Of a DNA stretch of 28,003 bases, positions 16,284 through 16,594 are shown in pieces. Numbering within the stretch: the stretch's first letter is position 1; each line of letters begins with the position of its first letter. The DNA lies in the IMG/VR virus record IMGVR_UViG_2859827302_000010; one strand, given 5' to 3'. Source of the stretch: a virus. Lineage: Duplodnaviria > Heunggongvirae > Uroviricota > Caudoviricetes. The position numbers were made by a program, and so were the translations under genes. Below the pieces are notes generated by a model that saw only the letters and a list, made by a program, of their open reading frames with translations, was not told where the DNA came from and made no database searches.

Positions 16284-16358
16284 TGGAGCGGGCAGCGGGA
16301 ATCGAACCCGCATCATCAGCTTGGAAGGCTGAGGTAATAGCCATTATACGATGCCCGC
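16284..16358 (-). tRNA. tRNA-Gly (anticodon UCC)
   Basis: Reverse complement GCGGGCATCGTATAATGGCTATTACCTCAGCCTTCCAAGCTGATGATGCGGGTTCGATTCCCGCTGCCCGCTCCA; cloverleaf with GTTCGATTCC T-arm and encoded CCA; resembles host glyT-type tRNA. Confidence 0.85.
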
Positions 16359-16361
16359 ATA

Positions 16362-16437
16362 TGGTGCCGACTACCGGAATCGAACTGGTGACCTACTGAT
16401 TACAAGTCAGTTGCTCTGCCTGCTGAGCTAAGTCGGC
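16362..16437 (-). tRNA. tRNA-Thr (anticodon UGU)
   Basis: Reverse complement GCCGACTTAGCTCAGCAGGCAGAGCAACTGACTTGTAATCAGTAGGTCACCAGTTCGATTCCGGTAGTCGGCACCA; perfect acceptor stem, anticodon loop CTTGTAA; one A-C mismatch in the T-stem. Confidence 0.75.
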
Positions 16438-16439
16438 GC

Positions 16440-16516
16440 TGGCCCACCACCGAGGACTCGAACCTCGCACCGTCAACTTAGAAGGTTGATGCTCTATCCG
16501 GATGAGCTAGTGGTGG
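16440..16516 (-). tRNA. tRNA-Arg (anticodon UCU), with a C1-G72 acceptor pair
   Basis: Reverse complement CCACCACTAGCTCATCCGGATAGAGCATCAACCTTCTAAGTTGACGGTGCGAGGTTCGAGTCCTCGGTGGTGGGCCA; parses as a 77-nt cloverleaf (anticodon loop CTTCTAA); architecture parallels argU. Confidence 0.65.
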
Positions 16517-16517
16517 T

Positions 16518-16594
16518 TGGTGGCCCTTGCTGGACTTGAACCAGCGACCTGGCGATTATGAGTCGCTCGCTCTGACCAACTGAGCTAAAGGGCC
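16518..16594 (-). tRNA. tRNA with CAU anticodon, ileX/ileZ-like (Ile2/lysidine type; formally Met)
   Basis: Reverse complement GGCCCTTTAGCTCAGTTGGTCAGAGCGAGCGACTCATAATCGCCAGGTCGCTGGTTCAAGTCCAGCAAGGGCCACCA; the anticodon stem-loop GCGACTCATAATCGC and T-arm match my recollection of E. coli ileX. Confidence 0.8.

Follow-up and report, generated by a model that had tools for sequence, protein, structure and literature searches.

A mosaic tRNA gene array of the lambdoid late-region type in an IS911-bracketed prophage fragment

In this study, we characterized a cluster of four tRNA genes that is probably a mosaic tRNA array of the lambdoid late region, a supplement for minor codons, now stranded intact in a wrecked prophage. 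In arrays of this class, the tRNA genes are located between the antiterminator gene Q, with pR'-tR', and the lysis cassette. According to ARAGORN, the window (the whole stretch of 28,003 nt that was analyzed) contains exactly four tRNA genes, all on the minus strand; the first-pass annotation had given no strand. They form an array at 16284–16594 in the order Ile2(CAU), Arg(UCU), Thr(UGU), and Gly(UCC), with spacers of 1, 2, and 3 nt:

16518–16594, minus strand: tRNA-Ile2(CAU), 77 nt, CCA encoded, of the ileX/ileY/ileZ type (ARAGORN; Rfam, 70.5 bits)
16440–16516, minus strand: tRNA-Arg(UCU), 77 nt, CCA encoded, of the argN-like slot-2 family (ARAGORN; Rfam, 56.4 bits)
16362–16437, minus strand: tRNA-Thr(UGU), 76 nt (ARAGORN; Rfam, 69.8 bits)
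16284–16358, minus strand: tRNA-Gly(UCC), 75 nt (ARAGORN; Rfam, 64.9 bits)

The scores for the Rfam family RF00005 (56–70 bits, where the gathering score is 29; E-values of 1e-13 to 8e-10) and the gaps of 1–3 nt show a tight, one-strand cluster of genuine tRNA genes. All four genes encode CCA and fold into a cloverleaf in the ARAGORN structures. ARAGORN agrees with the four packed genes, outer ends, and gaps proposed in the first-pass annotation, as well as with their anticodons, except that the CAU gene was labelled Met, because the tool cannot tell Met from Ile2. We retained the Ile2 identity because the gene is approximately 92% identical to ileX/ileY and because a gene identical to it carries the RefSeq annotation tRNA-Ile. 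It has six differences from K-12 ileY and is near-identical to ileZ of Stx phages. Its acceptor stem (GGCCCUU/AAGGGCC) retains C4-G69 and C5-G68, which, from the TilS literature, we take to be determinants in lysidine-dependent tRNA-Ile2. By these sequence characters, the CAU tRNA is a tRNA-Ile2 of the ileX/ileY type, in which C34 would be converted to lysidine and which would be charged with Ile. Its anticodon stem has only 4 bp because A27:C43 is mismatched, a feature overlooked in the earlier annotation.

In the Arg(UCU) tRNA, all cloverleaf stems are paired, and C1-G72, A20, and G73 are present; its gene occurs in 38 identical copies among IMG/VR loci. Across the relatives, slot 2 is occupied by one C1-G72 scaffold carrying the anticodon UCU, UCG, UUU, or UGU, the UUU and UGU versions having an unusual C33 and the UUU version also U73. 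In the family alignment, C1-G72 is found in all nine distinct slot-2 variants (9/9), including argN of Stx phages, and pairing in the family cloverleaf reaches 97.9%, two double changes being compensatory. Homology to the described tRNAs ileZ and argN of Stx phages is present, with 88–90% identity over Ile and slot 2. As judged from this homology, Ile2 and Arg are members of the phage ileZ/argN lineage.

Gly(UCC) is identical to E. coli glyT (75/75), and Thr(UGU) is identical to E. coli thrU at 74/76 positions, with U16C and U20C in the D-loop as the sole differences (U16/U20 in the host gene, C16/C20 in the array). Therefore, two of the four genes are host-derived copies. On these alignments, the array is a mosaic of phage-lineage Ile2 and Arg genes and copies of the host single-copy minor tRNA genes thrU and glyT. 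The earlier claim of a mismatch with the host thrU-tyrU-glyT-thrT operon holds for gene order and flanks but not for Thr and Gly, which are near-identical to thrU and glyT and stand in the same relative order. The spacers of the host operon are 8, 116, and 6 nt, whereas those around Thr in the array are 2–3 nt. The operon features tyrU, thrT, the native spacers, and the coaA/tufB flanks are absent at the array. Derivation of the entire cluster from the host operon was ruled out, since alignment is confined to the mature Thr and Gly bodies and does not extend into the flanks. The Thr allele of the window is linked to the UCU slot-2 haplotype. The Thr and Gly genes duplicate host genes and add no new decoding capacity.

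The array is already annotated in public genomes: over 351 nt, its sequence and that of the annotated array of E. coli FDAARGOS_944 show 100% identity, and arrays of this type occur on at least 36 IMG/VR contigs. The order of a Q gene or a gene in the Q position, tRNA genes, a class II holin, lysozyme, and Rz is shared by FDAARGOS_944, FDAARGOS_943, S51, CE0026a, and the isolated phage vB_EcoM-606R7. In the literature, where the gene name ileZ retrieves poorly, we found no description of this Ile-Arg-Thr-Gly array. tRNA genes downstream of Q have been described in SfI, Sf6, ST64T, PS3, and P21 (PMC3636060). The lambdoid late-leader tRNAs of phage 21, SfI, Sf6, and ST64T are Asn(GUU) and/or Thr(UGU). 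Our array shares their location and Thr(UGU); unlike that group, it has no Asn gene, and its Thr has the host anticodon arm. In Stx phages, the order is Q, ileZ-argN-argO, and stx. The ileZ-argN-argO array of the 933W/Stx2a type resembles the present one in lying between Q and the late and lysis genes, in having Ile2(CAU) first and C1-G72 in slot 2, and in having the same promoter-like hexamers upstream of Ile. However, slot 2 of the Stx phages is UCG, followed by argO(UCU) and stx, whereas that of the present array is UCU, followed by the thrU and glyT copies. The array carries no toxin genes; the stx genes of Stx phages occupy the position of the 292-nt spacer that follows its Gly gene.

For codon usage, 6659 prophage codons were compared with 14426 K-12 codons, the latter from 48 genes of one region only, and the 59 synonymous codons were ranked. 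The prophage genes are enriched in AUA, AGA, ACA, and GGA relative to K-12: AGG ranks 1, AGA 2, AUA 3, GGA 6, and ACA 7 of 59, each enriched 2- to 8-fold. Ranks 4 and 5 are taken by CGG and CGA, the codons that would be decoded by the UCG version of slot 2 (argN). The hypergeometric estimate for five chosen codons within the top 7 of 59 is p ~4e-6, the five codons not being independent. This match is not unique evidence because enrichment of AT-rich rare codons is general in horizontally acquired DNA. An ACA bias has also been reported for SfI (PMC3636060). In the late genes of the FDAARGOS_944 prophage, AUA and ACA are weakly enriched (odds ratios of 1.9 and 1.7, not significant), and enrichment is stronger in the early genes. 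The weak enrichment in late genes fits poorly with a tRNA supply from late transcription only; a dedicated promoter fits it. Together with the context in relatives and the setting between a terminator and a holin gene, the match of anticodons to codons supports the original view that the array is of the phage type.

The array is flanked by the following features:

16728–17976, minus strand: IS911 copy, whose IRR end abuts the terminator and which parts the array from the Q/pR' region
16687–16717, minus strand: intrinsic-terminator hairpin, a GC stem followed by seven U (dG -18.7 kcal/mol, z -5.0)
16604–16633, minus strand: sigma-70 promoter-like element, TTTGCA, an 18-nt spacer, and TATTAT (consensus scan)
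15992–16283, minus strand: spacer of 292 nt from tRNA-Gly to the holin gene, with three long hairpins (fold z -3.9)
15776–15991, minus strand: class II holin gene of the phage 21 S-type (P21-type), 71 aa (Phage_holin_2_1, PF04971, E 1.1e-35)
14520–15768, plus strand: IS911 copy, which ends 7 nt past the holin stop codon and occupies the place of the remaining lysis genes

The placement of the array between an upstream terminator and a holin gene was borne out by folding and by Pfam, respectively. The hairpin at 16687–16717 was missed by the terminator scan and was established by folding. We interpret it as the late-leader terminator, similar to tR'; the same hairpin is located approximately 75 nt downstream of the stop codon of the Q-position gene in FDAARGOS_943. 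Between the promoter-like element and the Ile tRNA lie 9 nt. Among 43 distinct upstream variants, whose flanks diverge, most retain TTGCA, a 17/18-nt spacer, and TATTAT, from which we infer that the element acts as a promoter. Our literature search, in which ileZ is again a poor query, found nothing on a promoter upstream of ileZ. The 292-nt spacer is 95–99% conserved in relatives. It matched no Rfam family even at E<=1 in a search of the 959-nt fragment described below, which gave only chance-level terminator-like matches, including the 3' half of isrK (E 0.49). The holin gene, downstream of the array on the same strand, is the sole lysis gene remaining.

The array and holin gene form an orphan of 959 nt between inverted IS911 copies, a state overlooked in the first-pass annotation. 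The fragment consists of the terminator, the promoter-like element, the four tRNA genes, the spacer, and the holin gene. The two IS911 copies form an inverted repeat of 1249 nt, are 100% identical to each other and 99.8% identical to elements annotated as IS911, and contain transposase domains. The terminator hairpin is separated from the upstream IS911 junction by 10 nt; judged against FDAARGOS_943, the break falls 62 nt downstream of the stop codon of the Q-position gene. The antiterminator Q and the late promoter are not present in the window directly upstream of the array; their loss is secondary because all close relatives have both. Lysozyme and Rz, which adjoin the holin gene in relatives, are replaced here by IS911. 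The fragment runs against the direction of the tail genes, while FDAARGOS_943 is collinear; with respect to both the tail and the immunity genes, it is inverted and has been displaced.

The triplets flanking the IS911 copies (ttc/ggc and atg/ctg) do not match in any pairing, direct or inversion-type, and a 142-nt fragment of IS911 directly adjoins the left copy. An IS911 composite transposon and a simple inversion were both rejected, as no target-site duplication was found in any pairing; therefore, IS-mediated deletions or inversions are indicated. The history probably comprised several IS911-mediated events. A hybrid outward promoter using a -35 element in the IS911 IRR (TTGACC) was also rejected, since there is no acceptable -10 element at 16–17 nt and the terminator follows directly. 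The window contains IS66, three IS1, IS2, three IS911, IS3-like, and IS110 elements. The exact IS911/terminator junction was absent from GTDB species representatives, and no complete E. coli genome covers more than 57% of window positions 9100–18300. The window is most similar to EIEC/Shigella genomes.

Both oddities pointed out in the first-pass annotation, C1-G72 in Arg and an A-C mismatch in the T-stem of Thr, are visible in the cloverleaf parses, and both are unusual in general bacterial models (NC marks; the Arg score given above). The proposal that one or both genes are thereby degenerate or specialized did not survive comparison: C1-G72 is invariant in its family, with compensatory changes elsewhere in the molecule, and E. 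coli K-12 thrU natively has the same A52:C62 mismatch. With intact cloverleaves in addition, Arg and Thr were ruled out as pseudogenes. It is very improbable that the genes are pseudo-tRNAs or a fragment of the host operon; the (near-)identity of Gly and Thr to host genes would suit such a fragment, but neither the flanks nor the spacers have anything in common with the operon, tyrU and thrT are missing, and the context in relatives is Q, tRNAs, and holin. We conclude from these comparisons that this is a prophage tRNA array of the ordinary kind, whose supposed oddities are normal traits of the respective tRNA families. An array that is non-functional debris of a dead prophage, merely without mutations so far and silent or irrelevant to the cell, is less far-fetched but still improbable. 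The 28 kb in which it lies are littered with IS elements, the neighborhood of the array has lost Q/pR', lysozyme, Rz, and the head genes, and the lack of target-site duplications at both IS911 copies points to IS-mediated deletions or inversions. Arrays of this type also decay elsewhere, as in the glyT copy of FDAARGOS_943 (anticodon mutated to UAC, a deletion in the acceptor stem, and CAA in place of CCA) and in one S. flexneri array with a disrupted 3' end of the Thr gene. However, all four genes of the window form full cloverleaves and match, at 100% identity, their counterparts in prophages that are much more complete, the conserved promoter-like element is kept within the fragment, and the terminator shields the array from IS911 read-through without silencing it.

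A function other than codon supplementation is the more serious alternative. Many phage tRNAs have been argued to replace host tRNAs lost to defense nucleases (PMC10264068, PMC12445682, PMC12409363), and there is a minor chance that the array mainly backs up or replaces host tRNAs destroyed by anti-phage Toprim nucleases, its alleles being poor substrates, with Thr U16C/U20C as the candidate. Phage copies of nuclease-targeted tRNAs are likewise known in T5 tRNA-Lys/Thr/Asn against PARIS and a phage tRNA-Tyr against retron Eco7. The sets of virulent phages differ from the present one, a temperate-prophage array of four genes only, two of which are essentially host sequences. The anticodon of Thr(UGU) is that of ThrU, a prime target of AriB, the PARIS nuclease, and the prime lethal target of P2 Old, against which tRNA-Thr(UGU) of phage 21 protects (PMC12445682). 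The Thr gene of the window departs from thrU at U16C and U20C alone. Position 16 is an AriB contact position, and the allele shares the U16-to-C change noted for T5 tRNAs, a change that impairs AriB cleavage of tRNA-Lys (PMC12409363). On the other hand, that effect was reported in tRNA-Lys, not in Thr, and the anticodon arm of this Thr is exactly that of thrU; therefore, the CNG motifs and the 5-bp stem are intact, and the tRNA should still be Old-sensitive by the published rule. Changes at 42 and 43 occur in relatives only, where G42 to U/C plus U43 to C is found on at least five different array backgrounds; these changes abolish the C40-A41-G42 motif and shorten the stem, fitting the two-factor rule of Old resistance. 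The Lys(UUU) in slot 2 of a sister haplotype has C16, G39, and U41, non-cleavable features at AriB positions, although the Thr of that haplotype is host-identical. The shortened anticodon stem of Ile2 would also suit nuclease escape. Against this, few tRNA positions are less constrained than 16 and 20 in the D-loop, so neutral drift under purifying selection would be expected to yield both changes; Gly does not differ from the host gene; and our literature search found no defense nuclease reported against Ile2, Arg(UCU), or Gly(UCC). A bolder form of the idea, in which the lambdoid prophage array is an evolving counter-defense cassette instead of a codon supplement, is slightly more doubtful still. 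On that reading, the series of thrU copies from host-identical through U16C/U20C to the addition of G42Y/U43C would track escape from AriB and Old, the slot-2 scaffold would have had its anticodon switched between UCU, UCG, UUU, and UGU, and the Thr allele of the window would be partly AriB-resistant.

We favor the minor-codon supplement and propose the following scheme. The array would add gene copies of four minor tRNAs decoding AUA, AGA/AGG, ACA, and GGA. Its transcription probably starts at a dedicated, conserved promoter of the sigma-70 type directly before the Ile gene; in an intact phage, the array would additionally receive Q-antiterminated late transcription through tR'. Given the spacers of 1–3 nt, RNase P would cut each 5' end, and 3' exonucleases would trim to the encoded CCA. 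Since the tRNA genes are undamaged, the array probably still feeds the minor-tRNA pool of the cell.

As it stands, the finding has little consequence, as this is an ordinary array that was correctly recognized and whose "atypical" traits are accounted for. It is nevertheless a clean case of phage-lineage tRNAs joined with almost exact copies of minor tRNA genes that are present once in the host. The alleles of Thr(UGU) and the change of anticodons in slot 2 bear on the current proposal that tRNAs of temperate phages act against nucleases of the PARIS and Old types. Arrays of this kind persist intact, with an apparent promoter of their own, in IS-degraded prophage remnants of the Shigella/EIEC type, where they may still raise the tRNA supply for AUA, AGA, ACA, and GGA.

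The tRNA array of the window is a module that is common in lambdoid prophages of Escherichia/Shigella and has already been annotated. In the 28 kb of the window, ARAGORN called exactly four tRNA genes and no others, all on the minus strand, separated by gaps of 1, 2 and 3 nt, and all four encode the CCA end. The coordinates, isotypes and layout reported in the first-pass annotation, which did not give the strand, are borne out by ARAGORN (same outer boundaries, four genes), Rfam (RF00005, gathering score 29), the hairpin and the holin.

The tRNA array and its flanking features
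16717-16687 (approximate), minus strand, upstream of the array: strong hairpin with seven consecutive U behind it (terminator), dG -18.7 kcal/mol, z -5.0
16594-16518, minus strand: CAU (Ile2) tRNA, RF00005 70.5 bits
16516-16440, minus strand: Arg(UCU) tRNA, RF00005 56.4 bits
16437-16362, minus strand: Thr(UGU) tRNA, RF00005 69.8 bits
16358-16284, minus strand: Gly(UCC) tRNA, RF00005 64.9 bits
15991-15776, minus strand, downstream of the array: class II holin of phage-21 type, 71 aa, PF04971, E 1e-35

None of the four genes is damaged, and much more complete prophages carry identical copies of them. The assignment to a common module follows from the layout in relatives and from database counts. 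Escherichia coli FDAARGOS_944, FDAARGOS_943, S51 and CE0026a and the isolated phage vB_EcoM-606R7 share the order Q or Q-position gene, tRNAs, class II holin, lysozyme and Rz, and the FDAARGOS_944 array is 100% identical to that of the window over 351 nt. An IMG/VR scan with a degenerate pattern of the scaffold in the second array position (slot 2) returned at least 121 loci. These included at least 36 complete arrays of the same type as in the window (Ile-Arg-Thr-Gly), at least about 65 Ile-Lys(UUU)-Thr-Gly arrays and at least six Stx-type arrays; at least 38 loci carry a slot-2 gene identical to that of the window. Among GTDB species representatives, the scaffold occurs only in Shigella flexneri and one E. 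coli, with three copies each. Stx phages carry Q, ileZ-argN-argO and stx at the corresponding place, and tRNA genes downstream of Q are known in SfI, Sf6, ST64T, PS3 and P21 (PMC3636060).

Sequence comparison indicates that the array is a mosaic, in which Ile and slot 2 are of phage lineage and Thr and Gly are near-exact copies of host thrU and glyT. Ile and slot 2 share 88-90% identity with Stx-phage ileZ-argN; against host genes, Ile is ~92% identical to ileY and slot 2 is visibly far more diverged from argU. Gly(UCC) equals K-12 glyT at 75 of 75 positions, and Thr(UGU) differs from thrU only in the D-loop (U16C and U20C). The host thrU-tyrU-glyT-thrT operon was rejected as the identity of the array, since tyrU, thrT and the host spacers and flanks are all absent. 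The earlier statement that order and composition do not match this operon thus holds for the array as a whole but not for Thr and Gly, which keep the relative order of thrU and glyT.

The CAU tRNA is ~92% identical to ileX/ileY and nearly the same as Stx-phage ileZ, and an identical gene is annotated as tRNA-Ile in RefSeq; the ARAGORN label "Met" reflects the anticodon alone. The first-pass annotation regarded Arg and Thr as possibly degenerate or specialised. The C1-G72 pair of Arg(UCU) is real, and the rest of the cloverleaf is fully Watson-Crick, with A20, C35, U36 and G73. The same scaffold occurs in Stx-phage argN and every family member examined (C1-G72 in 9 of 9 distinct variants); standard pairs make up 97.9% of pair cells, and pairs 3-70 and 30-40 are altered on both sides. 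C1-G72 is thus a trait of the family and not decay. The A52:C62 mismatch of Thr(UGU) is also real, and E. coli K-12 thrU has an identical T-arm, so neither feature sustains that reading. The Ile2 gene (16518-16594, minus strand) has a previously missed A27:C43 mismatch, leaving a 4-bp anticodon stem; it is common to the entire ileZ lineage, whereas host ileX has G27:U43. Its D-loop is one nucleotide longer than those of ileZ, ileX and ileY.

The slot-2 scaffold (window 16440-16516; relatives' loci L008 2791-2867, L009 2791-2867 and L006 2501-2577) carries four anticodons across prophages: UCU (window), UCG (Stx argN), UUU (S51; about 70 of the at least 121 IMG/VR loci) and UGU (CE0026a). With UUU or UGU, the scaffold has U73 and, in place of the U33 found almost universally in tRNAs, C33. 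The slot-2 gene is uncalled in the GenBank annotation of vB_EcoM-606R7. The "tRNA-Val(UAC)" in the fourth slot of FDAARGOS_943 (2637-2708 of its locus, L007) and about eight related E. coli genomes is a mutated glyT copy that carries C35A and A38G, has lost 1 nt of the 3' acceptor strand and ends in CAA instead of CCA; it is probably a pseudo-tRNA rather than a true Val tRNA.

Could the array be an answer to tRNA-cutting defences such as P2 Old and the PARIS nuclease AriB? P2 Old cuts host tRNA-ThrU at anticodon-stem CNG motifs and thereby blocks lambda, phage tRNA-Thr(UGU) genes, including that of phage 21, rescue the cells, and resistance requires an altered CNG motif and a shortened stem together (PMC12445682). 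AriB contacts D-loop U16-U17 in the authors' AlphaFold 3 model, and U16 to C impairs its cleavage of tRNA-Lys (PMC12409363). Within the family, G42 is changed to U or C, always with U43 to C, in Thr of at least nine IMG/VR loci and FDAARGOS_943 (L007 2712-2787; L125, L139, L141, L142, L138, L140, L143, L137, L058), spread over no fewer than five array architectures and D-loop backgrounds. These changes remove the C40-A41-G42 motif, unpair 27-43 and 28-42 and shorten the anticodon stem, which fits the two-factor rule for Old. Positions relevant to AriB read C16, G39 and U41 in the Lys(UUU) variant of slot 2. In the window, Thr is thrU with U16C and U20C added, an allele perfectly linked to the Arg(UCU) haplotype, while the Lys(UUU) haplotype has a host-identical Thr. 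However, the window Thr keeps the host anticodon arm, the U16C effect is known from tRNA-Lys rather than Thr, neutral change is to be expected at positions 16 and 20, and the window Gly is identical to the host gene. The idea is suggestive for the family and weak for the window, where we consider it unlikely; the array is not a proven nuclease-evading tRNA set.

The array belongs to the known class of lambdoid late-region tRNA arrays. It has the tRNA cluster, the holin context and the ileZ/argN homology of the class and lacks the Q/pR' context, a secondary loss. Array and holin form a 959-nt island (15769-16727) between two inverted IS911 copies, and the remainder of the window is mostly IS elements, which interrupt the contractile-tail module throughout.

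IS elements and phage remnants of the window
116-2799: IS66
2841-3980: DUF3383 sheath-like fragment
4151-4918: IS1
5814-7835: SLT-domain tape measure
8326-9093: IS1
9618-12748: baseplate genes
13058-14331: IS2
14378-14519: IS911 fragment, 142 nt, adjoining the left IS911 copy
14520-15768: left IS911 copy, 1249 nt, inverted relative to and 100% identical to the right copy
16728-17976: right IS911 copy, 1249 nt, inverted relative to the left copy
17885-18328: integrase fragment, followed by IS1 (the third), IS3-like, IS110 and a second IS66 (region 18300-24300)
27629-28003: third IS911 copy, running off the right edge of the window

Compared with FDAARGOS_943, the right IS911 interrupts the late leader 62 nt past the stop codon of the Q-position gene; because it sits just upstream of the terminator, any promoter preceding the terminator is lost. 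The left copy starts 7 nt past the holin stop codon and takes the place of the remaining lysis cassette. No target-site duplication was found for the two complete copies in any pairing, which indicates that the tRNA-holin fragment was relocated and turned round by IS911-mediated inversion and deletion. Relative to the contractile-tail genes (2841-12748, plus strand), the island is displaced and lies in inverse orientation, and it is likewise inverted with respect to the immunity genes (cI-like, 26339-26746; YdaT, 27034-27456), whereas tRNAs and baseplate genes are collinear and 19 kb apart in FDAARGOS_943. The best matches are IS-rich E. coli genomes, several of which we take to be EIEC, and Shigella; together with the IS pattern, they point to a Shigella/EIEC-type chromosome.

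The 292-nt spacer between tRNA-Gly and the holin (15992-16283, minus strand) contains three long hairpins (z -3.9). It had no match among Rfam families, its conservation in relatives is 95-99%, and Stx phages carry their stx genes at the corresponding place. In lysogens, the tRNA transcripts might end at a weak hairpin with seven U behind it, ~65 nt before the holin start codon. In the prophage immunity region, two full-length Rfam matches stand next to each other where a Rha/Ash-domain gene (24722-25426, minus strand) begins, one at its start and the other just upstream.
25322-25409, minus strand: C4 antisense RNA, 78.6 bits
25436-25512, minus strand: isrK, 63.8 bits

Upstream of the Ile gene, at a distance of 9 nt, stands a sigma-70-like element (16633-16604; TTTGCA, 18-nt spacer, TATTAT). 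Most of 43 distinct upstream sequences keep both hexamers (TTGCA, TATTAT) and the spacing between them, while other positions diverge. The array is probably transcribed from this putative promoter in lysogens and, in an intact phage, also by Q-modified polymerase passing the upstream terminator, and RNase P and 3' exonucleases would separate the tightly packed precursor. The role in codon supply proposed in the first-pass annotation is supported by codon usage, since the cognate codons are the most enriched in the associated phage genes: AGG, AGA, AUA, GGA and ACA rank 1, 2, 3, 6 and 7 of 59 in enrichment when 6659 codons (FDAARGOS_944 prophage and window phage ORFs) are compared with a small host baseline (14426 codons, 48 K-12 genes). 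Ranks 4 and 5 go to CGG and CGA, the expected codons of slot 2 in its UCG form (argN). The enrichment is greater in early than in late genes, and rare-codon enrichment is generic to foreign DNA. The added minor tRNAs would make translation faster for phage genes and perhaps for further AT-rich genes gained by horizontal transfer.

The array as such holds nothing new, since an identical sequence is present and annotated in public genomes. Of remaining interest are the series of Thr alleles and slot 2 with its switching anticodon, both with regard to defences that target tRNAs.
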